A stretch of DNA of 64,000 bases from Schmidtea polychroa (GCA_044892525.1 CM097885.1:126542001-126606000), one strand, 5' to 3'. Shown: positions 1 through 29,144, counted from the first letter of the stretch. The notes: generated by a model from the letters alone, not told the origin. Made by a program: numbers and translations.

Positions 1-3000
1 CTTCATTTGCGTGGGACTAAACCATGTCCCCTCCAACTCATCGATCTTCCTTTTGTACTTTCCAATTTGCGCTTGTAGATCCCTGATAACTGAATTCTTG
101 TCCGAGCAAGAAAAGCAAGGTTTAAGAATGTTGTTGGTACTTGAAGACATCTTGAATAGCTATGAAGAGGAAATGCGAATAAAATCAAACTAAGTCAAAT
201 GTGAGACATCATCATCTAGTCACACTCATACCATACTGATCATAGATTATCATACTGACAAAACGAGTTTATTAGCCTGAAGAGATTTCGTTACCCTACA
301 GATCTTGTACGCTTGGGGTCATTATTTATACGAGAGTGGATCATTCATGCAAGATTTTACCGAAGGAAAGTAAGGTATTATCCTGGATAAGGGAAATTAC
401 AGGTTGATGAAATTACAATTTAATCAATTTACCTGAAAACAGTACCTAACATTTAAAGAGAGTTTAAATTAAATTATAGATTTACCCCAAGACAAATAAT
501 TTGGATGTGTAGATCTTATGCATGGATAGGCGATTTATCTTTAAATTAATTATTCAACATAAATAAGACTCTATCAATTGCTCTGCAATTATTTGTTTGC
601 GATAAGTAAAAGTTTGTTAATTAATTTGCACTTGTTTAGTTGTGAGAAAATCAAAATGATTAAAACAAAGTTGAATATTTAAATGAATTTAACCACGTGT
701 ACCCAAAATGTCTGTCTGGCCGCTATCTATCATTTCTGATCGGTGAGAAAATCGGGTGACTGTCAGTAGTATGTTTCAGTGAATTATGTTTCAGCTGACG
801 CGTCAGGTTGGATTTCCTGTGATTAACAGTCTGTATAATCTACATATTGCGAGTAGCCTCTGTGATTATTCTAAAGCGCATGGCGCATGAAAATTTTCTC
901 TCACCTACTTCTACTTAGTCATAATCGCTGACTGATGTCTTCATGCTCTATGCCATGCCGGTGTATGCATGCAGGTGTATTTTCCCTTATGACATATTAC
1001 ATCACTGACGAACCATGTATCTACCTCAAATGCTGCTGGTTATCTCTCATGGATATTTTGGAAAAACCGGATTTCTACATCATCAATGTTGGAATTAATT
1101 CACGATCCCTCAAATAGGATTTACTAGCTCGTCTCGTGGTCCTCCATCGCTATCAATGTACGCCTGCTACTGCTGTCAAATTGGAGATTTATTACTTATC
1201 CCAATGCTGGATTTTCCACCCGACGGGATGTGGACATTTTATGGTTTACTGGGTAAACAATTATTCTAATAAATTATGTTTTAGGGAAATACATTTTTAC
1301 TGATTGGAGTTATTCGCTTTTATTTTTAATGATTACTTAAACCTATTTAATTACGTGATTTCATACAATTTCATCTTTGAGAGGACATATAGCCGATGGG
1401 AATAGCGATTTCGCAAAAATCGTTAGTCGAAAATTTCAAGATTAAATTTCTAGCGAATTCGAGAACTATGACAACTATGGCATACATAGCACTACCAAGG
1501 TTGGACGGTTTTTTAACGAAAGACTTGCCTAGATCTACTGGATGATAAAGAAGAATTTTAACTTGATCAGACGCTGTTATAATACGCTAGTGCGACACCC
1601 TCAATCACTGCGCGAACATATCAAAATTTCTCCTATTGATCGATTCATTCTCCTATCCTACTTCCTCGTATGAATTTTCATAGAATTTAGTCACTCCTTC
1701 AGCGACGGACCCGTGAGGAAGCCCCCACATTACGGCCCGAATCAGCTGCGTGATTGAAAAGACCCCATGTCCACCGGCTGAGCTCCCGAAGGCACCTCAC
1801 ACCATGACATAGAGTATCTCAACACCACGTTTCTCCAAAATTTTAAATATCATAAAATCAACAAATAGTAAAAATTCCTTTCATTCAAATAAAATATTTA
1901 TTACCAATTTACTAAAACATTTAATTAAGTAAAACCTTCAAATCAAACGAAAAGAGAAAAATGATTATTAAATTTAGACTACTATAAATTCATAAATATA
2001 CATGATCGTTGCATGGTAAACCTAAATAATGGAAAAATCCCTTACCAAATTTTCAAATAGGCTGAATCGAAAAGTTCTGAACAGAATTGGTTAATACTAG
2101 AATAGGTTATAGAATTGGTTGAGTTTCCTGAATTCCTAGAATAGTCCTTGAAATGATTTCGGTGAATCTGTGGCTGTCGCTGTGAATTTTGGTTTCTAAT
2201 GTAGTGGTTAGATGAACGGTAATTGTTAATTAAAATGCACTTACCTAATGTAGTGGTTAGATGAACGGTAATTGTTATGATTTTAGTGTCTGCTTATATA
2301 TTAGTTTTCTATTTATGCGGACCAATCAGAATGGAGTACCGCTTATTTTTATTACTTTAATTTGTTTTCCTTGTTTTTGAGTTATTTCTTCCTATTTTCT
2401 TTATTTTTATTGTATTTTTATTTATTTTCTTTAATTTCCTTATTATTTACTGCATTTTACGTCATTTTCCGTCATTTTATTGTCCTATTTCAATTTTTCG
2501 TGTTTTTATATTTTTTGTTTTAATTCTTATTTTCTAATTATTGTTTTTCTTATTTCCTTTCTACTTTGTTGCGTAGATTTGTTTATTTTATTTTTATTTT
2601 TATTTTTAATTTTTGTTTCGTTATGCTTAACCTAATCTCTCAGATACTCTTCTACTCAGCCCAACACTCGTCTTTCGTCAGTGTATTGTACATTTGAACA
2701 AGGTCGATGCTGTGTTCTGCAAACTGAAGATCGTTGAACTTTGGGTTCCTTCTGCAGGAAGCATTCGCATTTCGCCACTCCATATTCTATCAGGACGTCA
2801 TAGATTATGTGTGTCTTTCTTGTAATTAGATCTTCCAAATTTAATCTCATTGGAAGTTTTGAAAGGCAGCAAACTTTTACCATTTTTTTATTTGTATCCG
2901 TTGTCACGTAATCATCAAAAAACGAGAGTCCTACCATATTGTTGAGGTTTTAAAAGTAAATTATATTAAATCGAATAGGTCCGAATAAAGGGAAAACCGA

Positions 3001-3859
3001 AATGGAATGGCGGTCAAGCACAGGAGTAATGGCAAAGAAAGATATGATAAAAACGGAACTATAAAAGGATACAATCAGACTCGTAATGGAAAAATGCGCA
3101 AACCTGAGGAAGTGGAATAAAGTGAAAAGTTATCGAAATTGAAGCTGGAAAACGGGAGAGGGGTAGATTAAAGACAGTGAACAAGAAATTGTTAGAAAGT
3201 GTTTAGAAAGGGTCGTAAAACAGGCAAATAATAAAACACAAAATATTAATTAATTAATTGGCTAATGGGAAACCCGAGCGATGAAGAAACCGCGAGCGCG
3301 GAAATTTGGAAGAATAAACAAATGGGGAATTCAGAGAGCAATTATCCAAACAGCCGGATAAACGAGGGTAAACAAAAGAAGGGGAATTACGAAGAGGGTC
3401 AACAGAAATAGCTAATTGGAGAATGATAACTAAGGAAGTCAAAACCAATTAGGTCAAAAATAGGGCAATTACAACGATTATGGGAGTATATAAAGAAACT
3501 CCAAATTCACATAATGGGCAATAGCCTTAGGTAGGGAAACAAATATACGTTGGGAGTTTGTGTTTATTAATTTTTGGAACACGTGGAGTCAGAGTAACCA
3601 ACGGTCGACTTTTTAGTATTATAAAACCCAACAATATGTTCACAGAAGGCTACGGTACGATTGGGGTAATTCTTAAGAATTTATAATAGACGGTGATCAT
3701 TGTAAGGGGCTCGGACTGTAGGGTGTTCTTCATTCCATTGCCTCGTGTAAACTAATCCCTTGTACCATGCAACGAGAAAGCCTCAAGTGGATAAAGTTGC
3801 CAAATGATGATAACCATTTGGACGAACAATTCATTAGGAATCTAGTGGTGTATGTACGA
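1..3859 (-). repeat. 3' LTR, partial (cut by the window start; also lacks the outer ~816 bp of U3)
   Basis: 1-3859 matches 26819-30677 with no indel and no differences in spot checks; similarity stops abruptly after ...GTATGTACGA. Confidence 0.93.
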
Positions 3860-3936: not shown

Positions 3937-4525
3937 TTACGAACTGGTGTTATGGTAGATTGGGCGATTGGACGATGGTTGAGGAGATTCTTTATGGTTT
4001 AGTCTGGGTGAGCTTGTGGTTTGGATAACATTGGTTATTTCGGCTGGGTTTTGTACGGTGGCTCTGGATTTCGAGCTCTGACATTTTTTCTTAACTTCGA
4101 GGATTTTTAGGAAGGTTATGAGGCATAACAAGATAGTTTCTGCGATCACTACGTAGAGAAGGTAGTGGGTGTCGCTGTTATTTGAGGGTGTTTCTGTTGT
4201 CTCGGCCGGATTTTCGAACACTTCTTGTTGTATTTGTTGTTCCAACTGATCGAAGTGTTGGACTTGTTCGAGTATTTTTCGGTCCATCATTCGGCATATG
4301 GGGTGATTTTTGCACAGACTTCTGACGTTATTAACATATGACCGAGTTGACTGGATACTGTGGAGGATGTTGGTTTTGGCAAGGTTCTGGTTTGGCTTTT
4401 TGGTTTCGATTGCGGTGATCTCGTATGCTTGTCAGTTGAGCGTTTAATTGTTGTTTCTCCATCAGGTGATTTATCAATACCATTACCGTTATCACGATTC
4501 CATACCGCATTGTACTAATATACAT
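3937..4525 (-). pseudogene. Probable single type-I membrane protein gene split by a frameshift near 4435
   Basis: ORF 4331-4525 starts with a hydrophobic signal-like segment; the frame of ORF 3937-4290 is open back to 4431 and contains TM YLLYVVIAETILLCLITFLKIL; no AT-rich spacer separates the two ORFs. Confidence 0.5.
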
Positions 4526-4564
4526 CTATTATTATTATATTATTTACACTGGCTTTAATTGCTT

Positions 4565-5269
4565 TTAGTTAGATGGTTCTCCTTTGGGATTATTTTCGGC
4601 ATTTCTCATCAGGGTAGATTCCGCTTCAATGACCCGGTGTCTTAATTCCGGCATCATCTCTAATTGCCGATCCTTTTCACGGGCTTCCCTTTTTAGGTGT
4701 CTTATCTCCCTTTTTAGTTTGCTTATTTCTTCTCGTTTCTTTACGAGATTTCTTCTTAACTCGATTTGTAGGAAGTCTTGTTCGTTCTCTTGTGGAGGGT
4801 TTCGTTGTTGTTGTTGTCTCTCGATTTCTTTGTATTTGCGGATCCATTTTTTCATTTTTTCACTTTCTCTTTGTTTTTCTTCCAATTGTTGATTTAATTT
4901 ATTTATAGTTGTTTGGCGTTCTTTCACCTCTGTTTTCCAGTAGTCTTGGATTACTTCTTCTGCTTTGAAGCTTGCCCTTTCTTGCCATAATTCCTCTGCA
5001 ATCCTTTCCCAATTTCTTCCTCGTGTTCGTTGTTCCTGCAGCCATTCATTTCTCTCTTCTGCTTCTCTCTTTACTTTTCCTAGCACTTTGCATTCTTTCT
5101 TTAATACTTTAATCATTTTCCGGTCTTCCATATATTTGTTCACTAATCTCTCGTTTTCCCGTTTCTCTTCTCGTAATTCTTTCGATAGTATTTGTGTTTC
5201 TGTGACTTCCATTATAATTTCTCCTTCTTCTACTTCACTCATGGGTTCAACTATCTCTTCAATTTTCAT
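4565..5269 (-). CDS. Coiled-coil accessory protein (234 aa)
   Basis: ATG after ATTATAG|AT; E/K/R-rich heptad-like sequence. Confidence 0.75.
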   Translation of the reverse strand: MKIEEIVEPMSEVEEGEIIMEVTETQILSKELREEKRENERLVNKYMEDRKMIKVLKKECKVLGKVKREAEERNEWLQEQRTRGRNWERIAEELWQERASFKAEEVIQDYWKTEVKERQTTINKLNQQLEEKQRESEKMKKWIRKYKEIERQQQQRNPPQENEQDFLQIELRRNLVKKREEISKLKREIRHLKREAREKDRQLEMMPELRHRVIEAESTLMRNAENNPKGEPSN

Positions 5270-5438
5270 ATCTATAATATTTACAATTAATCATGCGCTA
5301 CAGTGCGACTTATACTTATACATTTATATCGTTTTTATTTACACAGGGTTACAGTCCCTCAAATACTTTTACTATACTATTAATTTTTTTGTTTGGGATA
5401 TAGTCCCAATTTTTGAATTTTGAATTTTTTATTAGCCC

Positions 5439-6612
5439 TTATACGAAGGTTTCCTCCTGACCCACATAACCTTCATCACTATCGACCGCTGGATGCAACT
5501 GTATCGCAATAGGGTCATAGGGTAGGTAATATTGGGGGATTTGAGCTCTCAATTCATTAACTTCGTCTCTTAGAGCTCGAGTGATATTCAGCTCTTCGTC
5601 GAGCAGATAAGTGAGATACCTTGTCTTTTCGTCTTTCGCCTCTACTTGTCTATCTAAGGCCTTGATTTTCTCGTCACCCTTCCATTTTTCAATTTCTATT
5701 TCCAAGTTTTTGATATTTTCGGTATACATTTTCCTCTCATTTTCTAATTTTCTATTTTTTCCCGCTAGGACCATGTTTCTTTGTTCTAACGATCCTTGTA
5801 GTCCATTAAGGTCTCTTTTCATCTCTTCGACCTGATTTACTAATTCCACAACCCGTCCTGCTTGTTGGGTTATCATCTCTTCCATTGCGGCATTCTCGTG
5901 CTCTCTTATGTCGCATTTTATTGCCAAATGTCGCTCAAACTCCATAGCCTTTGTTTGCCAGGTTTGGCTTCGGGCTGCGACCTTTTTCAACCGTTTCAGT
6001 TCTTCCTTTATTATTAAATTTTCCTCCTATTTACCCTGTTCGCTCTCATATCCGAGTCTCATGGGCAATTCTTTCATCTCTTTTTTCATTTCACTATTTT
6101 GTCTTTTCCATTTTCTCGCTTCTGCTACTAAGTGCATCATTTTCCTTCCTTCTATTTGCCTTTCCGCTTCGCGCTTGGTGTTCTCATCGGTAAGTCTCTT
6201 TCTCGCTTCCTGCACTAGCTGCTTTAAGTAGTGGCTGTGCGCTTCTTGGCGGGTATTTTCTAGTGACGCCCATTTTGATGCTCTTTTGCATGCTTCTGCT
6301 TCCGCTCTTAAGTTGTGTATTAACCATTGGTATTGACTATTCTCATCCTCTCTAGCTCCTTCGATGTGATTTCGGGTGAGATTAGTTAGTTGGAACATTA
6401 CTTTGTTCCATTTTTTGTTATGTTCTCGAGGAATTTGTGTCTTGTTGACATTGGTTGGGGCTATCGCAGTTTCGGTTAGTTTCTCTTGTGTCATCTCTAA
6501 ATCATAGACATCGATTAATCTTTTTATTATGAAAAAGGAATTTATTCATTATTTGCTGTTCCTTTGGAAATTTTCGCATCATTTTTGGGTTTACGTATTT
6601 AGGGTTTTTCAT
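5439..6612 (-). pseudogene. Long coiled-coil accessory gene broken by one in-frame TAG (6027-6029) and probably a frameshift near 6520-6545
   Basis: Track ORFs 6027-6494 and 5439-5990 share a frame (QGK*EENLIIKEELKRLKKV); an upstream ATG at 6612 (AATAATAG|TATG) opens a 36-codon frame that overlaps the start region. Confidence 0.65.
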
Positions 6613-6688
6613 ACTATTATTATATAATATTTTATTGGTTATATACACCGATATATACAGATTATTATATACAACATTATTCGATTGG

Positions 6689-8077
6689 TTACTCCGTTCT
6701 ACCCTTCTCCTCTTTCCTCACGGTCATCTTGATATACACCGTGTCATTTCTTGCCATATCTTCTACTTTTTGTTGTAGGATGAACGTAGGTGCTCCTGTT
6801 GCTGATCCTTCTTCTTCCGTAGGTCTCTGGTAACACATTTGGTTTCCCGTTGTCTTGAAGCTTTGTTCGTGGATGCTTCGGTCATTCATTAGTGCAATAT
6901 CGATTTTTGCCTGGAACGGCCACTCTATTATTTCGTCGTATTCCCCTTTACATAACAGAAAGAAAATCGAAAAGTGCGTATCTAATCCGGCTCCGTCCCC
7001 GTTGGGATATATCTTCATTTTCATTTTGTACCCATTCTTCCAAGAATGGAATGCAGGACTTGTTATTCTTGTCTCTTCTCCGGTTTTTGCTTTTCGTATT
7101 CTTTCTTTTACTCCCGTTATTTTCCATATGTAGGGTGCTGTTGGGGTTATCTCATTTAGATTTATTTCCCGTATTTTCTGATGTAGCTCCTTGGCCTGAT
7201 TATTACTGATTTCTATTCGGTTTATTTGCATCTTTATGTTTGCTCGGGCTTCCTCGAACGCTTCCCTTTCTTCTAGTAGTTCTTTGACTAACACTTTCAA
7301 CGATGTTATCTCTATCTCCATTTGTTTTACTTTCCCTTCGCTTTCTTGTAACGCAGTCGACCACATTTCTGCGTGGGTGGAAGCATTTTCTACTAAATGG
7401 TGTGGTAACTCCCCTCGGTGTAATAGTTTCTGACAACCCCATTTACCTAGTACACATGTCATTCTTTTCCTTTCACATTCCCTTAGATGCTGTGCCACCT
7501 TTATTATTTCCCCTTGGTTGCATCCGTTTGGGCATTCCCCACTGAACTCTGCACATACCATTTCTTCTTGGACATTGTGATGTTTGAGGGTGAGATTTTT
7601 CCACGTATCTATTTCTCCACAATGTTCACATCTTTCTAATCTCTCTTCACACTGCCTTTGATGTTCTTTTTCTTCGCTTGCTCGAATGGTTTTATGGCAC
7701 CTTTCACACTGGCCGATTCTGTACATACATTCTCCCATATGTTGTACTACCTTCCAGATTACTCCTTTCCATTCGCATGGGGCATTTTTGCATCCCAGGT
7801 TGGTGTTTAACATGTCTTTCACTGCGGCTTTATCTTCGTTAGTGTCTTCTAAACTCGATATTCGTGTTTCTTTACACACCGGGCACCACTGTGGTCTATT
7901 TTTTATTGCTTCACTGATACATTCTTTACATACTCTGCATCCACATTGAGTTTGGTGAGGTTCCTTTAACAACTTTTCACATATTCCGCACATAACATGT
8001 TTGTGTATTCTGATCGTTGTAGATTTTCGGACTTGCTCGACCATCTCTCTGAACTCTTCTCTTTGTCGTTTATCCAT
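6689..8077 (-). CDS. Intronless full-length TRAF-family protein (RING, TRAF zinc fingers, coiled coil, MATH/TRAF-C)
   Basis: CGICEKLLKEPHQTQCGCRVCKEC...CPVC; CKNAPCEWKG; YIWKI, SPAF, GYKMKMKIYPNGDG, THFSIFFLLCKGEYDEIIEWPF. Confidence 0.95.
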   Translation of the reverse strand: MDKRQREEFREMVEQVRKSTTIRIHKHVMCGICEKLLKEPHQTQCGCRVCKECISEAIKNRPQWCPVCKETRISSLEDTNEDKAAVKDMLNTNLGCKNAPCEWKGVIWKVVQHMGECMYRIGQCERCHKTIRASEEKEHQRQCEERLERCEHCGEIDTWKNLTLKHHNVQEEMVCAEFSGECPNGCNQGEIIKVAQHLRECERKRMTCVLGKWGCQKLLHRGELPHHLVENASTHAEMWSTALQESEGKVKQMEIEITSLKVLVKELLEEREAFEEARANIKMQINRIEISNNQAKELHQKIREINLNEITPTAPYIWKITGVKERIRKAKTGEETRITSPAFHSWKNGYKMKMKIYPNGDGAGLDTHFSIFFLLCKGEYDEIIEWPFQAKIDIALMNDRSIHEQSFKTTGNQMCYQRPTEEEGSATGAPTFILQQKVEDMARNDTVYIKMTVRKEEKGRTE

Positions 8078-8161
8078 TCTATAATTATATGTACATATAG
8101 TTCTTATCGATACAGGTTCGATATTTTATTTACAATTATTTACATTTAAGCTAGGTTTGGT

Positions 8162-8521
8162 TTAGGGTTCGGAAGAGTCGGCTTCGTGTCCGCTCTCCTC
8201 TCTATTCATTAGCCATTCCGACCAGTCTTCTATTTCTGTCTGTTCTGCTTCCTCCATCATTCGGTCTAGTTCAATTTCCTGTCTACGGCTATATTGGGTT
8301 ATCCTCTCTATCTCTCTTTGCATTTGTTCGATTTTCAACCTCTGGTCTTCAATTATCTTCAAATAACTAAATCCTCTATTCATACTCTCAATTAGGTTTC
8401 TGTGCATCGTCAATCCTTGTTCTTGCAAATTGGACACTAATTGTGCTAATACGGCACATTGTTGCTTCCATAATTCTTCAGTTACTGTATTGTGGTTCAT
8501 TTCGTTATTTCCTTGATCCAT
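8162..8521 (-). CDS. Small coiled-coil accessory protein (~119 aa; ATG start MDQG rather than the TTG in the track)
   Basis: First ATG at 8521 preceded by AAG|A; helical Q/E/R-rich sequence. Confidence 0.6.
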   Translation of the reverse strand: MDQGNNEMNHNTVTEELWKQQCAVLAQLVSNLQEQGLTMHRNLIESMNRGFSYLKIIEDQRLKIEQMQREIERITQYSRRQEIELDRMMEEAEQTEIEDWSEWLMNREESGHEADSSEP

Positions 8522-8681
8522 TCTTAATTTATATACACTTTTCAACTCTTATTTAAATTTAATTTTATTTTATGATTCCCGTTATTGTATAATATTGATA
8601 CCGCGCTTATATAAAGATATAGTACTGTTATATACATAAGATATACTTACTTTTTACAATTATATACAGTCATATTCCTTT

Positions 8682-11600
8682 CTATATACGTGAGTTTGGA
8701 GGGCGCTGAGCGTTCCAGGCATCCACCCACTGTTCTTGTTTGATATCACTTGGTCGTTTCACTCGATGTTGGAAATTTCTGATTCGGGTCATCTCTAGTT
8801 CTCCGCGATGTCGTTTATCTTTAATTATTTTTATTGTTCCCCCCGTTATGATTAGGAATGCCCCTGTTATTATTATTCCGCTGATCCACATCATCTGCTT
8901 CACGCTTATACTCTCTGGTTTTTCCTTGTTTGTTAATGTTGATATCGCTTCTGTACTTTTCTCGTTTCCTTTTTTGCCATTTCCTTCCATCATCTCTCGT
9001 ATTCTTGCTATTTCCTCGTTCAAACCCTCCTTTGCCATCTTTTGTATTTTTTCCATTTCTTCCTCCGAAACATAGTTGTCCTGAGCTTCCTCGCCGGTTT
9101 TCTTGTGCTTTCCTCCTTCGTCCTTTTCGTCGTGGTTTTTTCTTTTCTTTCCTCTTTTCCCCGGGTATCGTCGGCATTCTCTTTTTGATTCGTTCCTCCA
9201 GATACAAACCGTGTATTCTTTCGGCGGCTGCTGCTGCGTCACATATTGATGGCATCTCTCACCTGGTCCTAATCTTGAAATACAGACTTTGTGCTCTTTT
9301 CTAGGTTGGAGCTGCGTTATTACTACTTCACCACCTTTTCCTAGGTGTACCTCTTTTCCTTTAACGTTCGTTATTCTCTTCCCGTCCCGATTTCGGTATG
9401 CTTCTTGTATTCTTACTTCTGTTATTGGTTCTGTATCTTCATTTATTAACACTAGTCTCTGATATGCTCTCGACACACATCTTCCTAGTATGCACCTTTC
9501 TTTTAGATTCCATACCTCCTTCAGATCCCATTGCTGCTCTTGTGCTTGCTTTTTCTTTTCTTGTTTTAGTTCTTCCTCTTTGCTGTCTTGATTCTCCGCT
9601 TCTTTGGTTTCCTTTATCGTTCTCGTCCCACCGTGGGCTGTTATCATTTCTACCATTGTTAGTATGAGTATCATTACCATCATATTTGTCTCCATTTCCT
9701 TGTTGGTAAAAAGTAGGCATACCCTCTGTTTTCCAGTATTCGTCTTTTCCTCTTCCTTTGTTCGGCTTCCCGGGTTATTTTCCTCCTTTTTCATACTCGC
9801 GTCGTTATTTTCTTGATTATTCTCCTCTGATTTCTCTTTCTCTTTATTCCCGTTTCGACCTTTTTCATTATTATCGTCGTCTTTATCGTCTTTCTCTCCC
9901 CCGCTGTCGTTTAAAATGTCGTCCTCGACATTTATATCATTCAATAATCTGCGGTATGCTGTTAACACTCTGTTCCTTGCTAACTTTGCTTCGAATTCGA
10001 ACTCTTTTCTACCCGTTGCAGCATGTCTCTTTCTATTCCATTCTTTGACTAATTCTCTCAATTGAAGACGACGATGTTTTCCAATTCGTTGTTGCTCGTT
10101 TTGATTTTGCGTGAATTTGAGGTCCTCTCTATTTAAGACTATTAAGATAATTTTAGGTGTCCCCCCTTTATTTAATGTATTTTTGACCATCTCGTTTTCG
10201 CCGTTCTCGTAAAATTCGTTTACGTTTATCGCATATTTATTACTTTGCGGCACTCTCCATGTTAACAATAATTTCATTGCTTCTAGATTTTTTCGTACCG
10301 TATTCCACTGGAATTGGGATGTATTTTTGCATATATTTTCCACTTCTTCCTTTGTCGCATTTTTGCAGATGAATCTGATCATTTCTAGGTTTGGCTGAAT
10401 GGTTGCCCAGTCCATTGTGGAATTTCCTTCGTTTGACTTTTCGTCTAGTCTTGATCCTGATTGATGCAGTATGTGGAGTGTTTTTGGGTGTATTTTCGTT
10501 ATAGCTGCATACATCATGGCGGTTTCGCCTTGTTCATTTTTTGCATTAGATTCTTCTCCGAAGTCTCTAAGGATTCTTATGATGGTTATTGCTCTGTTTT
10601 CTTTTGCTGCTAAAATGGCTTGTTGTAATGGTGTTCTTGAATCTTTTGTTGGTAAGGTGAATGCTAGTGGTATAAATGTTTTTATTTTTCCTATGTCTAG
10701 ATTTGTGGTCTGGTCTCTTGCGTAGGTGTGTACTGTTTTTGTTATTTTTGCTAGTATCGCTTCATCGGATAGATCTTGCATTTCTTCGAAGAATACTTCT
10801 TTAGCCTTACGTACTACTATCTCTTGGTCGGAGTTTATTGTCTTTGGTTTACTTGTTGTTGCTACATCGCTTATTATTTGATCGACTCGTTTCTCAGACT
10901 CTCTTGCTGTTATTTTCTTGATTTTTATCTTTTTCTTGTTTGAACTGTTAACGCGTTCCTCTGCCGTTAGAACTTGAATAATACTTAGGTAGTTTTCTCG
11001 AATGTTATTCATAGTTTCCATCATATATAATACACTCACGGTTTCCCAATATTTTACTTGTACCTTATCGGTAAATTGAGATATAGTTTTTTCGAAGTTG
11101 GTAATCCGTTTTCTGATTAGTTGTTCGTCTTTGTGATTTGAAAACTTTATGCCACGTTGTAGTAGTTGATTGGGAATTTCGAATAGGTGATGTCCTCTCA
11201 TCGCTTCTCTCATCAAGGTGTTTTCTCCTTTGGTAAACGTTTCGTTTATATCTACCATATAATCGTTTCTGATCGGGTTCCTCCATGCAATTAGTATTCC
11301 AGCAATTGTTATTAATTTCTCTTTGATTGCAGTTAGTAACCCGTCGTACATGTTTCCTATCTCCCTATTATCCTCGTACGATAATAGATCTACTAAGATT
11401 ATGAAGGCTTCCGCACTTTTCCCTTCGATTGCATGATGCAGTGCGTTTTTCTGATTGCGATCTTGTGTGGTTATTTTTGATCCAGTTTCAAGTAATGCGA
11501 TAATAATATCTTTAGCTTTATCCCGATTGGCTGCTATCATTAGTGGAGTGTAACCTTGGTTGTTTTCTTGATCTGTCGAAATGTTACAGTCGCGAAATGC

Positions 11601-14600
11601 TTCAATTGTCTCTAGTATTTGTTCATTATTACCAACCTTTAAAAGTTTGTGTAGTGGTGTATCTCCGTAGTGATCTGTGATTGTGAATAATATAGGCCAT
11701 TGACTTTTAACCACTCTGAGTAATGGGTGTGTTCTTTCTCTGTTCGCATAATTTTCGATCATCGTCAATAATCCTCCTAATATTTCGAAATCTAATCGAT
11801 CTTTTGCCCATCCGGGTAGTTTTATCTTTACCTCTCGTACGATTTTTTCCGCTTCCGATGGTTGTATGCCCGATCGTCCAGGGATAGGTTCTGCGAGTTG
11901 TTGCATCATGTTCATTCTGTATGTTTGCGAACGTGTGGTTAATGTTCGACCTTCCGGTTGACTGGTGGCGGTTTTTGGAATTGATTTACATCGTGCCACG
12001 TTTACGTATATTGGCCTGGTGAATGGATTATTTACCAATTTCACTCTTACATTGGTTTCGCCTACAAATAGAATCTCATATGGTCCTTTTCCGTTGCGTT
12101 GTAACTTTTTTGTGGTTCCTGGAATTAATTCCGGGGTTTCTATCATTACCCAATCACCTGTTTGAAACGTATGTTGCTTCACGTTTTTCTTTCGATCGTG
12201 TAAATCTTTATAACTTTCCTGGTAGAACTTGATATTTAATCCCGCAGTTTCCCAAATTTCTTGCATCCTTTCCTTGAATTTCGTAACATAATCGTCGATC
12301 TCCATATACTGCGATATCGGTGGTTGGTATTCCAGGTCCATTGGCATATTACATTCTCTTCCGTACATTAATTTGAATGGGCTCATTTTTGTTGATGCGT
12401 GAATCGACATTCTGTACGCCATAAGACATAGGTTTATATATTCGTCCCAATCTCGTTGGTGACGGTCGACGTAGTTTGATAACATTTGTATAAGCGTTCC
12501 ATTAAATCTTTCCGTCATCCCATTGGTTTGAGGGTGATATGGAGATGTTCTTAGTTTTGCTATTTTGAAGTAATTTGTTACTTCGCTCATTATCTCACTC
12601 ATAAAATTAGTTCCCTGATCGGTTAATATTTGTTTTGGTGTTCCATATCGGCAACATATCTCTTCTACCAAAATTTTTGCGATTGTTTTAGCTTTTTGGT
12701 CTGGCATCGCGAATGCTTCTGGGAATTTCGTAAGAAAGTCTGTAATCACTAAAATATAAACGTTCCCTCTATCCGATTCTGGTAATGGACCAACTACGTC
12801 CATGGATATCATCGTCATCGGCTCTATTGGTACGGGCATTGGCGTTAAAGGCGCTTTCCATTTTGATCCAGTATTTTTCCTGGTCGCACAAGTTAGGCAA
12901 TTTTTTACCCATTCGGTTACGTCTTCGGTTAACGTAGGCCAAAAATATTTCTGTTTCATTCTTGCTAACGTCTTTTTCGATGACATATGTCCTCCCAATC
13001 TCCCATCGTGATATTGCGTTAGTAACTCTTTTCGTCGGTTTTCCGGTATACACATTAACCTCTTCTCTCCATCCATTATCAGCAACCAATCTTTTTCTAT
13101 AATATATCGGTGTCGGTGTTTATCCATATGTTCTTTTAATTTTTGGTCTTTCGCATATGCATCCGTCTTTCCGGTTTTTACATAATCGATAATTTGTTTT
13201 AATTCCGCGTCCTCTTGTTGGTCCTTTCGCAGTTGACAGAAATCCAAATCTTCCGCTACTATTAAGCATATGCGTTGCATTTCTGAATCCACCAAATCTG
13301 GAAAAATGAATCTTGACATACAATCGGCGTTGGCATTTGCTCTTCCTGCTTTGAATTTTATAAATGGGGAATATTCTTGCAATTGCATGGCCCATCTCAT
13401 CAGTCTACTGGACGCTTCTTTATGTTGCCCTAACCACACTAATGGTTGATGATCTGTGGTTATGCATATCTCATGTCCCCATAGTAAATATCGGAAGTGT
13501 TTGATAGCTTGTATTATAGCCAATGCTTCTCGTTCTGTTACCGAATAGTTCTTTTCGTGCTTTTTGAATGTTCGACTGTAATACCCGATTACTCTCTCTT
13601 TTCCTTCATCGTCTAATTGTCCCAGAATCGCGCCTGCCGCGTACCCGCTTGCATCCGTTGCCAATAGAAATGGCTTCTTAAAATCTGGGTGTACGAGGAT
13701 AGGTGCTTCGATTAGTTTATCTCTCAGCGTTTCAAACGCCTCTTGTTGTTCCTTCCCCCAAATGAACGAAATGTCCTTCTTTACTAATTCCTGGATTGGT
13801 TTTGCAATTCCTGCATAATTTTTGATAAATTTGCGATAGTATCCGCATAATCCTAGAAATTCCTGAACTTGGGTGACAGTTTTCGGTGCTGGACATGTTT
13901 TTATTTTCTCAATGTTTCTTGGATCTGGCTCCTTTCCTTTAGCTGACACTATGTGTCCCAAAAACGTGACTTTTTCCTTTGCCCAATCGCATTTTGATGG
14001 TTTGAGTTTGAGTTTCCACTGTCTTAATCGAATAAATACGTTTCGGATATCTTCTAGATGTTGTTCAAATGTCGCTGAATAGATTAGTAAATCATCAATA
14101 TATACCATACATTGTTTGATTCCATGAGTGACAAAGTTCATACACCGTTGGAATGATGCTGGTGCATTGGTCAGTCCGAATGGCATTTTCCGGAATTGAT
14201 ATAGATCTCGTCCCAGCGTGAAAGCTGTTTTCTCTTTGTCCTCATCTTTGACTTTAATCTGCCAGTATCCACTTTTTAGATCTAAAGAAGTAAAATATGC
14301 TGCCCCTTGCAACATCAATAACATCTCATTGATGTCCGGCAATGGATAGGTATCTCTCTTGGTTACTGCGTTTAACTTCCGATAATCGATACAGAATCGT
14401 TGGGTGCCATCTTTCTTTTTTACCATGACCACTGGGAATTGCCAAGGTGAGCAACTCGGTTCGATTACTTTTGCGTCTAGCATCTTTTGTACTTCTGCTT
14501 CGGCTATTTCTTTTTGCATTTCTGCTAGCTTGTATGGTCTTAATGCAATTGGAGTTTCATCTATGAGGGGTATTGCATGTAGGGTAACATCGCATGTACC

Positions 14601-17600
14601 CAAGTCTAAATCTGAGATGGCGAATATATCTTTATATTCTACCAACAATCGGTGCAATTTTTTCTTTTCATCATTCGTCAACAACATACTATCTATTGTC
14701 CATAATTCATCATCTTTGATCATTTCGTTGGTCACTTTCGGTAATTCTATGTCTATCATTGGGGTCAATCTTCCCAATTTTTCGTTCTCATAAATGATTT
14801 TGTCTTCCTCTTCGAAATTCGTGATGTTGAGCGGTATCACTCCTTCTTGGTTTATTGTGATTATTTCCCTTGCGAGTGGTAACTCTCGTCGCTTTTCAAA
14901 TGACTTGCTTGGTTCAAAGATAACTTCTCCTTCCATACCCGTATCCACTTTTATCTGACAAATCATCTGTGATTTTGCTGGTACCACAATTTTCTCTGGA
15001 CATCTGATTATGGCATTCATTTTGCATATTCTACCTGTTTTGTCTTTTAAACACATGGTTGTTAAATCAATCACCATTTCTTTTAATAATTCCGGCATCA
15101 GGTCCGTTCCGATTATGCATGGTACGCTAAGTTTTGGTATTACTGCCAAATACGTTTCAATTTCGTTGTCCTGGTATCTCAATGTAGTCCACCATCTTCC
15201 GACCACGTCCACCGTTTCTTTACTACATGCTATGATGTGAATTGTTGTTGATTCGATATCTTTCCAGTGCTTACTGGGGATTTGATTAATCGCTATCGCT
15301 GATACATTAGCTCCGGTGTCTATCATAGCATTGGTCTCTTTACCATTGATTTGAATCATGACTGTTACTGCTGGACCTCCAGGTAAACTCATCGCTGCTA
15401 TTGTTCTTACGTCATCTGCTTGATCTACACTTTTGGTACGTCGTGTTGGCATATAATGCATACCGGGTTGACTCGGTAATTGCGGATACATGTTTTGTGT
15501 CATGGTCAAAGCTGCTTGTGGTCCCACGATATCTGGCGGTATATAGCTTCCATTGGCGATCCAGGTATTTGTTTTTTCCTTTTCCCAATATGGTGCCGTT
15601 TCCATTGGTTTTTCGTTTGGGTTTCTGTTTGGATATAGACATTTATCGTTCCCGTTATCATCGTCGTCACTATCGCTGTTAGATGATTGGCTTCTAAATC
15701 GGTCCAAGAATTTTTGCTTATTCTTTTTCAATTGTCGTCTTGTTGCTTCATCGTACATTACTTTCCGGAATCGTCTGCCTACTTCTTCGTCGGTTCCTTT
15801 AATCTTTGTTAGTATTTTGATCAATCGCTTTATCCGATGGATGTCTTTTGAGTGACCATGTAATACCATGGTTTTTGCTAAAAATGGTAAAAAGCCTACT
15901 ATCATTTTCCAATTTACTTTCTTTTCTCGATTGTATATATCAAAACAAGCTAACATTTGTGTTAGTATTACCCTGACTATCTGAATTATGAGTATGATCC
16001 CCAGTATTCCGGCCATCATTTGTCCAAAAACTAAAAATCTTCCCCACATGGCTTTCATCATGTTTGACGTGGCTTGTTGAAAATGGTCTGGCGATAGTAG
16101 CAGCTCGTAATTCGGGCCTGATTGATAATTTGTTCCCCCCGTTATTGTAACCATATTTGACAAAATGGATTCTCGTCTGGCTGGGAAGAGTACGTTAAGT
16201 CGTGCTGTTTCTAGATCTTCTGGGGAATACATACCACCGTTTGACACGTCTATAGGTTTGAAATCCAGCTCTGTGGCGAGTTCTATTAATCCAAATTTCT
16301 TGGGTTCCTCGAATATGGTTTTTCCCGGTAGCATCATCCATTTCCCATCGGGTCTTTCATATAAAGGTCCGTATGCATTAGAACAGTTAAAGAGATTTGG
16401 GTAGAAACCCACTGGATTCATAATTCTCGTGACTGGTTGGACGAATCGATTTTGTCCCTTATAACGGATTTCTAATTCGTTTGCACATCTCTTTTCGGGT
16501 AGTATGGATTTTTCTGGCATTCGTGCATACGTCTTTGTACACTGGTATGTGTACATCACTTCTCCTACCATTCTACCAAAATGTCCGTCTGGTAATGGGA
16601 GTGATGGCATCGTGTTATCTGGGTGTGTTATCGCAATAGCTAGCTTTGTTTTCAATATTTCTTTATTCAATGAACAATCGTTTTGTATCAGATCGTAATA
16701 TACTTTTTGCAAGGTCGTTTGTCCGCGATGAAATAGAAAATCCATTTTATTATTTGCATATAAGTATAGTTTTACGTCCTCCGTTGCTATCTTTCCCACT
16801 GCTCTATCGATTATTTGTCTCGACATATAGATACCAGCGTAATTGGTTTTATATACTATACTGTCACATTTGGTGGTTTCTTTCTCTTTGATAAATCTCA
16901 TACCTAGATCTGGATCGTCTGTGATTAATGCTGTTGGTGTCTTCTGCGTTGAGAGTCTCTTTTCTCTGGGAGATGGTGGCATTGGTTTTCCATTTCGCAT
17001 TCTCACTCTGTCGTTTCCATCCTCGTCGTTCTCGTTCTCATAAATTTCTCCTTTTACTTCATTGAACAAAGCACTTTTTAACAGTTGGAGTCGGCATTTT
17101 TGGGTATTAGCTTCATAGATTATAGTTGATACTCCTGTCCTGCATACGTTTTCTGTAGCTCTACACGCTGGGTTGGTCTTCATTTGATAATTATTTGCGT
17201 CAAATTGCGCTTCGTATTCTTTTAATTCAACCGTATAAGACTCGATCACTACTACTCCCGATATTACCTCGCCTCGGATCGTATACGTACCTCCGTTACA
17301 TGACCCATCTGATGATTTTACTTTTCCGGATACGTAAACACTTTCGGTTTTAATCATTCCAGTTTGTCCGTGAATCGTCACTCCGTTATGCATTTTTAGC
17401 GCTCCGGTTCTAAATAGCTCTTTACAGTCCTCTCGTTGTATTGATACGATTTCTTTATCCAGACCGGGTAGTATAAGAGTCGAATATGAATATTGTCCAC
17501 AGTAATATGCGAGTACCTTTTTTGATACTACGCATTCCCTTGCTTGCGTTCTGATGAAATCTGATTCTTGATATACATGGTAAGTAACTTTTGTTCTTAC

Positions 17601-17747
17601 TATGTCTAATTTGTTGGGTGATGCTTGTCTGCATTCTTCTATGTCTCTCAATGAGTATTTATCTCTCATTATCATATTATCACAATCGTAGATGGTAAAA
17701 CCCGTTGCTCCACTTGTGCACAACATCCATATCATCATAGTCATCAT
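8682..17747 (-). CDS. pol: Env-Pol polyprotein: signal peptide, chuvirus-like glycoprotein, TM, aspartic protease, RT, RNase H, integrase, ankyrin repeats, second membrane module
   Basis: G: IYDC, YYCGQYSYS, GEVMYTYQC, GMYSPEDL, TM ~15945-16030. PR: DTGA at ~15318. RT: YIDD 14091-14102. RH: TDASG. IN: H-H-C-C, DVVGP, GPY. ANK: GDTPLH, GYTPLMIA, GETAMMYAA. Confidence 0.95.
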   Translation of the reverse strand: MMTMMIWMLCTSGATGFTIYDCDNMIMRDKYSLRDIEECRQASPNKLDIVRTKVTYHVYQESDFIRTQARECVVSKKVLAYYCGQYSYSTLILPGLDKEIVSIQREDCKELFRTGALKMHNGVTIHGQTGMIKTESVYVSGKVKSSDGSCNGGTYTIRGEVISGVVVIESYTVELKEYEAQFDANNYQMKTNPACRATENVCRTGVSTIIYEANTQKCRLQLLKSALFNEVKGEIYENENDEDGNDRVRMRNGKPMPPSPREKRLSTQKTPTALITDDPDLGMRFIKEKETTKCDSIVYKTNYAGIYMSRQIIDRAVGKIATEDVKLYLYANNKMDFLFHRGQTTLQKVYYDLIQNDCSLNKEILKTKLAIAITHPDNTMPSLPLPDGHFGRMVGEVMYTYQCTKTYARMPEKSILPEKRCANELEIRYKGQNRFVQPVTRIMNPVGFYPNLFNCSNAYGPLYERPDGKWMMLPGKTIFEEPKKFGLIELATELDFKPIDVSNGGMYSPEDLETARLNVLFPARRESILSNMVTITGGTNYQSGPNYELLLSPDHFQQATSNMMKAMWGRFLVFGQMMAGILGIILIIQIVRVILTQMLACFDIYNREKKVNWKMIVGFLPFLAKTMVLHGHSKDIHRIKRLIKILTKIKGTDEEVGRRFRKVMYDEATRRQLKKNKQKFLDRFRSQSSNSDSDDDDNGNDKCLYPNRNPNEKPMETAPYWEKEKTNTWIANGSYIPPDIVGPQAALTMTQNMYPQLPSQPGMHYMPTRRTKSVDQADDVRTIAAMSLPGGPAVTVMIQINGKETNAMIDTGANVSAIAINQIPSKHWKDIESTTIHIIACSKETVDVVGRWWTTLRYQDNEIETYLAVIPKLSVPCIIGTDLMPELLKEMVIDLTTMCLKDKTGRICKMNAIIRCPEKIVVPAKSQMICQIKVDTGMEGEVIFEPSKSFEKRRELPLAREIITINQEGVIPLNITNFEEEDKIIYENEKLGRLTPMIDIELPKVTNEMIKDDELWTIDSMLLTNDEKKKLHRLLVEYKDIFAISDLDLGTCDVTLHAIPLIDETPIALRPYKLAEMQKEIAEAEVQKMLDAKVIEPSCSPWQFPVVMVKKKDGTQRFCIDYRKLNAVTKRDTYPLPDINEMLLMLQGAAYFTSLDLKSGYWQIKVKDEDKEKTAFTLGRDLYQFRKMPFGLTNAPASFQRCMNFVTHGIKQCMVYIDDLLIYSATFEQHLEDIRNVFIRLRQWKLKLKPSKCDWAKEKVTFLGHIVSAKGKEPDPRNIEKIKTCPAPKTVTQVQEFLGLCGYYRKFIKNYAGIAKPIQELVKKDISFIWGKEQQEAFETLRDKLIEAPILVHPDFKKPFLLATDASGYAAGAILGQLDDEGKERVIGYYSRTFKKHEKNYSVTEREALAIIQAIKHFRYLLWGHEICITTDHQPLVWLGQHKEASSRLMRWAMQLQEYSPFIKFKAGRANANADCMSRFIFPDLVDSEMQRICLIVAEDLDFCQLRKDQQEDAELKQIIDYVKTGKTDAYAKDQKLKEHMDKHRHRYIIEKDWLLIMDGEKRLMCIPENRRKELLTQYHDGRLGGHMSSKKTLARMKQKYFWPTLTEDVTEWVKNCLTCATRKNTGSKWKAPLTPMPVPIEPMTMISMDVVGPLPESDRGNVYILVITDFLTKFPEAFAMPDQKAKTIAKILVEEICCRYGTPKQILTDQGTNFMSEIMSEVTNYFKIAKLRTSPYHPQTNGMTERFNGTLIQMLSNYVDRHQRDWDEYINLCLMAYRMSIHASTKMSPFKLMYGRECNMPMDLEYQPPISQYMEIDDYVTKFKERMQEIWETAGLNIKFYQESYKDLHDRKKNVKQHTFQTGDWVMIETPELIPGTTKKLQRNGKGPYEILFVGETNVRVKLVNNPFTRPIYVNVARCKSIPKTATSQPEGRTLTTRSQTYRMNMMQQLAEPIPGRSGIQPSEAEKIVREVKIKLPGWAKDRLDFEILGGLLTMIENYANRERTHPLLRVVKSQWPILFTITDHYGDTPLHKLLKVGNNEQILETIEAFRDCNISTDQENNQGYTPLMIAANRDKAKDIIIALLETGSKITTQDRNQKNALHHAIEGKSAEAFIILVDLLSYEDNREIGNMYDGLLTAIKEKLITIAGILIAWRNPIRNDYMVDINETFTKGENTLMREAMRGHHLFEIPNQLLQRGIKFSNHKDEQLIRKRITNFEKTISQFTDKVQVKYWETVSVLYMMETMNNIRENYLSIIQVLTAEERVNSSNKKKIKIKKITARESEKRVDQIISDVATTSKPKTINSDQEIVVRKAKEVFFEEMQDLSDEAILAKITKTVHTYARDQTTNLDIGKIKTFIPLAFTLPTKDSRTPLQQAILAAKENRAITIIRILRDFGEESNAKNEQGETAMMYAAITKIHPKTLHILHQSGSRLDEKSNEGNSTMDWATIQPNLEMIRFICKNATKEEVENICKNTSQFQWNTVRKNLEAMKLLLTWRVPQSNKYAINVNEFYENGENEMVKNTLNKGGTPKIILIVLNREDLKFTQNQNEQQRIGKHRRLQLRELVKEWNRKRHAATGRKEFEFEAKLARNRVLTAYRRLLNDINVEDDILNDSGGEKDDKDDDNNEKGRNGNKEKEKSEENNQENNDASMKKEENNPGSRTKEEEKTNTGKQRVCLLFTNKEMETNMMVMILILTMVEMITAHGGTRTIKETKEAENQDSKEEELKQEKKKQAQEQQWDLKEVWNLKERCILGRCVSRAYQRLVLINEDTEPITEVRIQEAYRNRDGKRITNVKGKEVHLGKGGEVVITQLQPRKEHKVCISRLGPGERCHQYVTQQQPPKEYTVCIWRNESKRECRRYPGKRGKKRKNHDEKDEGGKHKKTGEEAQDNYVSEEEMEKIQKMAKEGLNEEIARIREMMEGNGKKGNEKSTEAISTLTNKEKPESISVKQMMWISGIIITGAFLIITGGTIKIIKDKRHRGELEMTRIRNFQHRVKRPSDIKQEQWVDAWNAQRPPNSRI

Positions 17748-17768
17748 TAACGAATTTATTGATGCTTT

Positions 17769-24847: not shown

Positions 24848-25324
24848 TTATTCGCCATAATAAACCATATGAGTCTCTTTTATCTCGTGCTTACATATTG
24901 TGCACCGTTTTAGATCGTTTACACATTCTTCGCAGTGACTGAGGTGTCCACAGGGCAAGAACAGTACGCGAATAGGACGAAGTTTGCAGGACAGACAGGT
25001 TCGTAATTTAGTGAGCTTTTCTTGTATCTTCTGTTCGATTATGTCGGATATAATATCTAATTGATCTCGTAGTCGATGATATTCTAGATTCAATCTCAAT
25101 CTTTCCTGATACCACTGATATATGGTTTCATGATTCACTTTACTATCTGCACGACTTAGGCCTATGGCTAATAACATATGGTTAGGTACGATTGGTGCTT
25201 GTCCCATTGTTTGTAGTTGTATGCTCCTAATTCTCTCTCTTTTCTGTGTAAGCGTTTTTATGGGATCGTTTTCTATATCAACGAAGTTGCTTAGTTGTTT
25301 CATCAGTTCTGTGAATTCTGTCAT
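24848..25324 (-). CDS. Coiled coil plus C-terminal IAP/MDM2-like RING-HC protein (158 aa), upstream of gag
   Basis: CLSCKLRPIRVLFLPCGHLSHCEECVNDLKRCTICKHEIKETHMVY at the extreme C-terminus; acceptor TTTTCCAATAG 2 nt before the ATG. Confidence 0.85.
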   Translation of the reverse strand: MTEFTELMKQLSNFVDIENDPIKTLTQKRERIRSIQLQTMGQAPIVPNHMLLAIGLSRADSKVNHETIYQWYQERLRLNLEYHRLRDQLDIISDIIEQKIQEKLTKLRTCLSCKLRPIRVLFLPCGHLSHCEECVNDLKRCTICKHEIKETHMVYYGE

Positions 25325-25633: not shown

Positions 25634-25651
25634 ATCCCGGCTGAGCCCCCA
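25634..25651 (-). promoter_or_regulatory. Primer-binding site complementary to the tRNA-Pro 3' end
   Basis: Minus strand TGGGGGCTCAGCCGGGAT; plus strand ATCCCGGCTGAGCCCCCA closely resembles the eukaryotic tRNA-Pro 3' end (ATCCCGGACGAGCCC+CCA). Confidence 0.8.
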
Positions 25652-26224
25652 AAAATTATGTTGGCGGGTGACTACCCGGATGACCCCCTTCATTACCGCT
25701 TTCAGTCCAGAGGATGAATGCCCCATATCGATTACGCTCGTCTTGATTCTGGTCATTGCCGAGCAGGACCCGTACATAATCTACCCTCCAACATAGCACC
25801 CGTGAATCGCTTCACGTTGGAACTGTGCTACGCCGGCGAGACGCCAGTAGGCAGGTGAGCCATCTCCTTCGGACTACTCCCTACTGAGGCCTCGACTTCC
25901 TAACCCTGACTGCCGATAGAAGGACTTACGTCATTTCATTTTGTCACCCATCGCAAGATTTCTAGCTGGAATTACCAATTGACCAATATTCCTCATTTTT
26001 CCGAAAAACTCTCAATGCTATTTACAAGTTCATATTATTTTCTAAGTTCAACACACAAGATAACGCATACATAAACGAAAAACTTTTATTATTAAATTTA
26101 CTACACAAACACCTAGAGGATTTATACAAGGAATTTTACACGAACTGAATAACACCAAGGTAGAAAACGACAACAGAAAAGTTCGATCCGCTACGGAGAA
26201 GGAGGCCATTCTCCGGGGAAATCC

Positions 26225-29056: not shown

Positions 29057-29144
29057 ACTTACCTAATGTAGTGGTTAGATGAACGGTAATTGTTATGATT
29101 TTAGTGTCTGCTTATATATTAGTTTTCTATTTATGCGGACCAAT
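29057..29144 (-). promoter_or_regulatory. LTR promoter (CCAAT box, TATA box) followed by a short first exon and a GTAAGT splice donor
   Basis: CCAAT 29140-29144, TATATAAG 29111-29118, AG|GTAAGT with G at 29062; same motifs in the 3' LTR at 2239-2326. Confidence 0.6.

Follow-up and report, generated by a model that had tools for sequence, protein, structure and literature searches.

The short spacers between the genes of a giant long terminal repeat (LTR) retroelement in the planarian Schmidtea polychroa carry Pumilio-type UGUAHAUA motifs, and it is the upstream stop codon, not the next ATG, to which a spacer's first motif is anchored. The element lies in a 64,000-nucleotide stretch of genomic DNA (GCA_044892525.1 CM097885.1:126542001-126606000), referred to here as the window. 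The first 29.5 kb of the window are one minus-strand LTR retroelement, a Burro-type giant gypsy, in which a polyprotein is followed by ORF119, a TRAF-like open reading frame (ORF), a coiled-coil ORF, a 234-aa ORF and a last accessory ORF. The motifs themselves had been noticed by a model reading the sequence (the original prediction); the anchoring is new here. The motif is very probably functional and acts on RNA. We tentatively favour the reading that Pumilio-type sites behind the internal stops would shield the element's predicted nested mRNAs, with their long 3' untranslated regions (3'UTRs), from nonsense-mediated decay (NMD).

Motif set and enrichment

A motif scan re-found the twelve plus-strand TAT[ATG]TACA starts listed in the original prediction (4541, 5278, 5336, 6640, 6652, 6666, 8088, 8127, 8137, 8530, 8629 and 8661). 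All read TGTAHATA on the minus strand, the coding strand of every ORF of the element, in agreement with the sense orientation claimed for them. The three variants at the H position are likewise all present (A in five sites, T in six, C in one, G in none), each of the five window spacers (38-194 nt, 76% AT) holds one to three sites, and the position-5 wobble consensus UGUANAUA is matched on the RNA strand by 12/12 sites. Enrichment against composition-matched shuffles had been set as a check beforehand. In 5000 dinucleotide shuffles of the five window spacers (645 nt, 76% AT) the mean was 0.62 sites and the maximum 4, compared with the 12 observed; the enrichment stands, and the earlier estimate of ~0.25 expected sites was slightly low, which leaves the conclusion unaffected.

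An unbiased count of 8-mers in the spacers of the element's families A and B, described below, ranked TGTAAATA first (12 versus 0.76 expected) and TGTATATA fifth, and the motif sites in these spacers all lie on one strand (19/19). Antisense matches within 4541-8668 number two, at 7720 and 8090, the latter overlapping the self-complementary site at 8088. The coding sequence of the element (17,358 nt) contains no sense motif, which does not amount to depletion because only 0.9 is expected after synonymous shuffling. Two lone motifs outside the spacers, at 24271 and 26019 in the window, were set aside; the leader/LTR stretch of L035, a locus with a diverged LTR, does not have them.

Anchoring to the stop codon

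The genome searched (G000; 781 Mb, four large contigs) provided 30 copies of family A, 92-100% identical and including that of the window, together with copies of the related families B and C. In the window, the distances from the stop to the first motif are 13, 17, 15, 95 and 16 nt in the five spacers, four of which thus have a stop-proximal site. All sites are on the minus strand. Behind the polyprotein, a stop-proximal TGTATATA (8661..8668) begins 13 nt past the stop, a second TGTATATA lies at 8629..8636 in the same spacer to ORF119 (exact in 28/30 copies), and an acceptor-proximal TGTATATA at 8530..8537 stands 8 nt ahead of the ORF119 ATG. The ORF119 stop is followed after 17 nt by TGTAAATA (8137..8144), by a tandem second TGTAAATA that overlaps an AATAAA (8127..8134) and by an acceptor-proximal TGTACATA (8088..8095), 10 nt ahead of the TRAF ATG. 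Three TGTATATA sites lie behind the TRAF-like ORF: the stop-proximal one, 15 nt past the stop, at 6666..6673, a second at 6652..6659 (30/30 copies) and a third at 6640..6647 (29/30 copies). The spacer behind the coiled-coil ORF departs from this pattern. Its first site, TGTAAATA at 5336..5343, is 95 nt past the stop and not stop-proximal, and is specific to a subfamily, being found in 5/30 copies and lost in 25/30; an acceptor-proximal site at 5278..5285, 8 nt ahead of the ATG of the 234-aa ORF, reads TGTAAATA (H=A) in 5 copies and TGTACATA (H=C) in the 25 copies of the other subfamily. The last stop-proximal site, TGTAAATA at 4541..4548, begins 16 nt past the stop of the 234-aa ORF.

These distances recur in the other copies and families. 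Among the 30 family A copies, the first motif lies 13 nt past the polyprotein stop in 28 (2 are not scorable), 17-18 nt past the ORF119 stop in 30, and 15 nt past the TRAF stop in 29; behind the 234-aa ORF it lies at 16 nt in 5, at 18 nt in 1 and at 22 nt in 22 copies, and 2 are without it. In family B (L042) the first motif is found at 16, 17, 16, none, 18 and 17 nt (5/6 spacers), the orthologous distances being 16 nt for the polyprotein, 17 nt for ORF119, 16 nt for TRAF and 17 nt for the 234-aa ORF. The position scored as none is filled by a one-base variant, TGTATAAA, 17 nt past the stop of an IAP gene that only family B possesses. Family C has distances of 13, 19, 15, none and 16-18 nt in 4/4 intact copies holding the block.

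When families A and B are pooled, 9/11 spacers have their first motif in one 6-nt window behind the stop, compared with a maximum of 7/11 in 100,000 trials of random placement in the same spacers; since orthologous spacers share ancestry and represent about six independent positions, this pooled test overstates significance, which counts among the points against our favoured reading. The same statistic anchored on the ATG scores only 3, and the single families reach 4/5 (A) and 5/6 (B) spacers against a shuffle maximum of 2. From the last motif to the ATG, distances in the A and B spacers range over 8-145 nt and do not exceed 15 nt in four cases; spacer ends are imprecise (window spacer 5 by 1 nt, B spacer 5, C spacer 4), which affects the ATG distances only. 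The letters of the linker between stop and motif have turned over between families, and the motif and its distance have survived at about six positions.

The stop-proximal motif is missing after ORFs that come last or carry their own T-rich end signal. The last accessory ORF is without it, with the first motif at 54-181 nt or none in family A and none in family B, as are the ORF inside the LTR and the RING ORF of the leader. Host genes served as a control: 10-20 nt past the stop, the motif occurs in 0/30 G-protein-coupled receptor (GPCR) loci, 0/5 TRAF genes and 0/1 NAD synthase gene (0/36). The GPCR loci comprise 22 full-length matches and 8 partial ones, the latter outside the 22-gene tally and also without the motif; anywhere up to 200 nt past the stop, it is found in 2/22 host GPCR genes. 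Six of the 20 stretches retrieved (L038, L039, L046, L047, L056 and L057) missed their target, and L055 was unscored in this control.

Because only translation sees a stop codon, the anchoring points to action on translated RNA and not through the promoter, splicing or 3'-end machinery. One such action would be termination-reinitiation on a polycistronic RNA, with a factor behind the stop holding the 40S subunit for the next ATG. The site indeed occurs where the next ORF follows 40-190 nt on and not after terminal ORFs. Each ATG, however, has its own acceptor and the LTR has a donor, and the reinitiation signals known to us lie upstream of the stop, which makes this alternative very improbable.

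Conservation across copies and families

Comparison with other copies, also proposed beforehand, found that the 30 genomic copies keep 11-13 sense motifs; most of the others have a thirteenth site past the last ORF, which the window copy has lost together with that stretch. Differences between orthologous sites are confined to the H position, with A/T exchanges between families and A/C exchanges between subfamilies, and sites that are TGTATATA in family A are TGTAAATA in family B. Among the 30 copies, 4/12 H columns vary versus 14/84 fixed columns, and 9 of these 14 are due to the lost site and to gapped alignment at 4541.

These exchanges bear on the DNA-level alternatives that the original prediction had named, in which each accessory gene would have its own internal promoter and the motifs would be its TATA-like or forkhead sites. 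Five of six TGTATATA sites run on as TATATAA, and TGTAAATA contains GTAAATA, the forkhead core consensus. However, the swaps among TATATA, TAAATA and TACATA at orthologous sites are tolerated as a set by neither consensus, the 5' TG is invariant, and the sites keep to one strand. The distance from the last motif to the ATG leaves little room for a start site, and the LTR has a separate CCAAT-TATA-donor unit. Both alternatives fit poorly, and we regard internal promoters as the least probable of the explanations considered.

Family B encodes a 4791-aa polyprotein and an extra BIR-RING gene. Segments of its accessory proteins are 28-43% identical to those of family A (ORF119 is 29% identical to a 151-aa ORF of family B), and its accessory block gives no blastn match to that of family A. 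One family B copy, L048, has a shifted polyprotein stop. Family C shows 70% identity in TRAF and 25-60% in the last ORFs. Of 15 stretches behind primer sites, 6 have an accessory block (4/5 of family C and 2/2 of A3) and 9 are without it (1 C, 6 D and 2 B2), and the comparisons thus cover families A, B and C. A metagenome scan with an ORF119 alignment returned 158 pattern matches and 0 confirmed relatives; all comparisons are therefore within G000.

Pumilio as a candidate reader

The genome contains one full Pumilio gene, at C4:75.2 Mb. The recognition residues of its eight repeats (SRFIQ, NYVIQ, CRVIQ, NHVVQ, CRVIQ, NYVIQ, SNVVE and NYVIQ) match those of the solved PUM1/PUM2 structures and of human and fly Pumilio and are thus canonical, as judged from alignment of two of the four exons to the solved structures and visual comparison of the remaining two. 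A pair of duplicated Pumilio exon fragments, covering repeats 3-4, lies away from this gene at C4:88.41 Mb and 88.55 Mb (L110, L111). CELF-type UGU binders are candidate alternative readers of the motif. Human and fly Pumilio bind UGUANAUA (PMC7566576), and the planarian DjPum is a neoblast gene that is needed in neoblasts (PMC5855632). Host Pumilio likely binds the motifs as RNA, a prediction from the repeat residues and the consensus. With regard to the PUF element of the original prediction, an RNA-level, PUF-compatible motif is upheld by the H-only swaps, the sense-only placement and the canonical host Pumilio; its regulation by Nanos or by repression does not follow from these data. The accompanying idea of a sponge is unlikely, since the 12-13 sites are dispersed and stand at a fixed distance from the stop, which argues for cis action at termination.

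The motifs resemble Pumilio response elements (PREs) in the UGUANAUA consensus with its free fifth base, the sense strand, the clustering, the AU-rich context and the cognate host protein; functional PREs are characterized by exact consensus, clustering and AU-rich context (PMC7566576). They differ in their position 13-22 nt past a stop and in recurring once for each gene of a mobile element, with binding predicted. In human UTRs, functional PREs are preferentially located at the 3' end and in single-stranded sequence (PMC7566576), both of them tendencies and not strict rules; here the sites are stop-proximal instead, and folding predicts them to be rather paired. As the stop-proximal location is the opposite of the human one, standard Pumilio repression leaves the anchoring unexplained.

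Such repression is nevertheless the main alternative to the proposed shield, and one that we consider unlikely. It would come with a built-in gradient, Pumilio with CCR4-NOT damping, in stem cells, the genomic and upstream mRNAs most strongly; in a variant, genomic RNA would be moved from translation to packaging. The nested mRNAs would carry all downstream sites, about 12 on the genomic RNA and 0-1 on that of the last gene, and in short spacers the sites would come to lie at the first place outside the path of the ribosome. The exact consensus, clustering and AU-rich context as in functional PREs and the canonical host Pumilio suit repression as well, and it also covers the second and third sites. 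However, random placement in the same short spacers fails to give the fixed 13-19 nt, the human preference is for the 3' end of the UTR, and the terminal ORFs, which are nearest the tail, are without a site. If this alternative were true, a transposon would be keeping host repressor sites under selection.

Transcript model

An AG lies 0-4 nt ahead of the ATG at the 3' end of 11/11 spacers of families A and B, and TAG/CAG exchanges between copies keep a YAG acceptor. For the last ORF, families A and C both retain an acceptor ahead of the second in-frame ATG. A predicted major splice donor, AG|GTAAG, is located in the LTR at 29058..29065 on the minus strand, ~50 nt past the TATA box of a predicted core promoter (29111..29144, minus strand; reverse CCAAT at 29140-29144 and TATATAAG at 29111-29118). 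Both the donor and the CCAAT-TATA pair are kept in the diverged LTR of L035; in family B, no donor matching AG|GTAAG was found within the 700 nt at the start of the LTR.

The presence of these acceptors and donor is compatible with a role in splicing control, in which a nuclear factor on the motif, for example a CELF/Bruno-like UGU binder, would balance weak A-rich acceptors. Three window spacers have a full site 6-8 nt ahead of the AG, and in 4/6 family B spacers the AG is preceded by TGTA[AT] half-sites. However, the conserved first site keeps its anchor on the stop and lies at 20-140 nt from the acceptor, family B has no full acceptor-proximal sites, and the motif contains no branch-point-like YTNAY. 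We consider splicing control quite improbable as an account of the motif. The second, looser class of sites, 2-14 nt ahead of the acceptor AG, may have another role.

Internal 3'-end signals are a further alternative: a CFIm-type UGUA and an AAUAAA would end each accessory mRNA in the next spacer, in the manner of an operon or of adenovirus late genes. The order stop-UGUA-AAUAAA matches a short 3'UTR, and an AATAAA is present in 12/16 spacers, sometimes overlapping the motif as in TGTAAATAAA. However, 8.9 are expected (p 0.08), so that AATAAA is not enriched, and the T content 10-50 nt past internal AATAAA is 12-42%, compared with 50-57% at the last-ORF and RING sites of family A, 42% at that of the LTR and 18-33% at the RING site of family B. 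Eight positions of the motif are conserved and not four, and a stop codon is invisible to nuclear processing. Planarian poly(A) sites, moreover, are reported to be without upstream UGUA, and CFIm-59/68 were not detected in that study (PMC5068929). Such signals are improbable.

From the acceptors, the donor, the unenriched AATAAA without T-rich sequence downstream and the planarian poly(A) sites without UGUA, we infer that the accessory mRNAs would be 3'-nested with kilobase 3'UTRs; the planarian median 3'UTR is 176 nt (PMC5068929). Among the loose ends listed for contigs of runs X1, X2, X6, X7 and X8, none at a spacer was a leader, spliced-leader or poly(A) end. Two single contigs were not used as evidence: one from X1 starts 3 nt upstream of the coiled-coil ATG, and one from X6 contains a run of A that lies 240 nt inside the 3' LTR.

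A possible shield against nonsense-mediated decay

The favoured mechanism would begin at the LTR promoter, from which a short leader with its donor would be spliced to the AG ahead of each accessory ATG to give 3'-nested mRNAs. Their 3'UTRs would be about 1-5 kb long if counted to where the accessory block ends, and >8 kb if they end in the LTR. The 'ribosome shadow' past a stop is roughly 15 nt, and a motif that starts 13-22 nt past the stop would therefore lie just outside the terminating ribosome, which a bound protein would abut. Pumilio works with PABP (PMC7566576) and, speculatively, it might make the stop resemble one near a poly(A) tail. As a speculative alternative, Pumilio might keep UPF1 off, as PTBP1 does on the RNA stability element (RSE) of Rous sarcoma virus.

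The RSE is the closest comparison. With PTBP1, this stop-proximal element saves a long-3'UTR retroviral RNA from UPF1; it is active only right behind the stop and loses its activity when moved (PMC4764554). The sites described here are alike in their position right behind a stop on retroelement RNA, with a long 3'UTR that is predicted. In contrast, the RSE is 400 nt long, pyrimidine-rich and single, whereas the motif has 8 nt, is A/U-rich and follows up to six stops; the proposed factor is a PUF protein instead of PTBP1, and the window spacers are A-rich on the sense strand, unlike the pyrimidine-rich sites of PTBP1.

A number of points weigh against the proposed shield, besides the shared ancestry of the spacers mentioned above. 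Pumilio is known mainly as a repressor, and no report of Pumilio blocking NMD was found in the literature searched (subscription papers and supplements were outside its scope). The large coiled-coil ORF is without a stop-proximal site in 29/30 family A copies (first at 95 nt or more; 1 not scorable) and in 4/4 family C copies, although a long 3'UTR is expected there. Compact relatives have no exact site after the polyprotein (0/6 loci: L088, L089, L101, L098, L096 and L097), L096 and L097 having TGTATAAA at 20 nt past the stop. Seven or 8 of the 12 sites are not the first after a stop and need an added explanation. In family B, TGTAAAAA stands at the fifth site, the position of the large coiled-coil ORF, in two of the four copies compared (L040 and L041, which have an ORF shortened to 261 aa), and the position-7 A variants, of which the spacers hold 5, would bind a strict PUF protein less well. 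In local folding predictions the unpaired value is 0.39 for the motifs and 0.57 for the remaining spacer sequence; the greater pairing concerns the TGTATATA sites. Contigs of the presumed-RNA runs X1, X6, X7 and X8 and of run X2 cover the region, and some bridge spacers; they are uninformative. In the shield reading, binding, transcript ends and decay are all predicted.

Neither the element type nor the motif is new. In the same literature, however, no retroelement was found with a PUF-type site held behind each of its internal stops, and no report of PUF motifs in Burro spacers. Few cases are known of how multi-gene retroelements and retroviruses preserve long-3'UTR mRNAs, the RSE with PTBP1 among them. 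A more specific proposal, that Burro marks every gene it captures by placing a Pumilio site one ribosome-edge past the stop and would thereby turn a repressor into an NMD guard, is possible but rather doubtful. If it were true, a modular 'true stop' mark would have let a retroelement grow to a 30-kb unit of six to eight genes despite host 3'UTRs of ~176 nt, element expression would be tied to Pumilio-rich stem cells, and the apoptosis and ubiquitin cargo would be linked to the neoblast Pumilio programme. A short motif at a fixed distance from up to six stops, across spacers that do not align, is a natural experiment on position-dependent PUF action, for which the planarian genome offers about a thousand primer-site matches of the element's group.

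The element and its surroundings

The element spans -1159 to 29484 in window coordinates from LTR to LTR, the LTR being 3.8 kb long; its ORFs, LTRs and primer-binding site are on the minus strand. The planarian Burro/GYPSM1 elements are described as about 30 kb long and present in many copies, with LTRs, one polyprotein, a mononegavirus-like env between gag and protease, and accessory ORFs with ankyrin, MATH/TRAF, RING and SMC-like coiled-coil cargo (PMC6431247). The window element shares the giant size, the env position and the ankyrin, MATH-TRAF, RING and coiled-coil cargo. The BIR and Bcl-2-like domains of Burro/GYPSM1 gave no match in the 13 window proteins scanned, and BIR occurs in the sister family B; the element is therefore Burro-type but not Burro1 itself, as placed by domain layout. 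The review is silent on spacer motifs and accessory-gene expression (PMC6431247).

Pfam matches place the Gag-Env-PR-RT-RNaseH-IN-ankyrin polyprotein at 8682..22550, with gag, zinc knuckles, a Monjiviricetes-type fusion protein, protease (PR), reverse transcriptase (RT), RNase H, integrase (IN) and ankyrin repeats in this order. A premature polyprotein stop at 17769-17771 is found in 1/30 copies, the window's own; being private to this copy, the gag stop was rejected as a read-through site. ORF119 (8162..8521; 119 aa, no Pfam family) has an AG at 8523-8524 ahead of its ATG, and the TRAF-like ORF (6689..8077; RING and MATH, 462 aa) one at 8079-8080. The coiled-coil ORF (5439..6494, AG at 6497-6498) encodes 351 aa in most copies and has an in-frame stop at 6027-6029 here. 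The 234-aa coiled-coil ORF (4565..5269) has its AG at 5272-5273, where TATAG/TACAG variants keep the YAG; the Pfam coiled-coil matches of both ORFs are weak. The last accessory ORF (3937..4525) is frameshifted here and has 203-219 aa in most other copies, with ATGs at 4525 and 4510 and an AG ahead of each. The window copy is thus defective in three ORFs (17769-17771, 6027-6029 and about 4290-4525) despite almost identical LTRs.

In families A and C, the spacer behind the large coiled-coil ORF, where the stop-proximal site is lacking, contains a hairpin (GGGA-6 nt-TCCC) and, after it, a variable A-tract of up to about 40 (window about 5375-5410; L175-L178). An A-tract is found in the same spacer of family B (L042 7490-7550). 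It is possible that the tract would be a landing site for PABP.

The bounds of the 5' LTR (25659..29484, TG...CA) follow from the LTR pairs of 3 other copies, which are 99.4-99.98% identical. This LTR holds a 247-aa ORF (26225..26968) with a pyrimidine-rich acceptor, and an AATAAA with a GT-rich tract near 26090, which suggests an unusually long R region. The primer-binding site, which we take to be tRNA-Pro-like, is at 25634..25651; it has 1058 exact matches in G000 and its reversed control 0. In the 5' leader, between primer site and gag, a RING-finger ORF (24848..25324) is preceded by a pyrimidine-rich acceptor and followed by an AATAAA and a T-rich tract. Four to five tandem 74-nt repeats at 23917-24283 in the leader are kept in other copies.

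The 3' LTR (1..2666) extends 1160 nt past the left edge of the window. Ahead of it, 2667..3859 is a copy of the element's 5' flank (29485-30677), 100% identical to it, which takes the place of about 217 nt at the 3' end of the internal region. The duplicated flank likely arose by repair or conversion with the 5' end as template, and a candidate alternative is an error of the assembly; the stretch itself is a very high-copy repeat. A 5-kb direct repeat was rejected as the LTR, since other copies show a 3.8-kb LTR and the remainder is the duplicated flank. Elsewhere in G000, tandem copies are spaced at 20-26 kb (C4:46255550/46281731, C4:69863444/69889730 and C158).

Host neighbours in the window are a single-exon glutamine-dependent NAD synthase gene (703 aa, 32349-34460) and an ISXO2/Merlin-type transposase fragment (63144-63662). 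Frames of 487 aa or 4791 aa, as is typical of family B copies, contain many of the 150 MATH/TRAF matches listed, and the planarian TRAF expansion may be partly retroelement cargo. Multi-copy Bcl-2-like ORFs of 115-144 aa (L090-L095, L102-L104) lie in AT-rich multi-ORF repeats that are unrelated to the element by tblastx and are possibly another class of large transposon.

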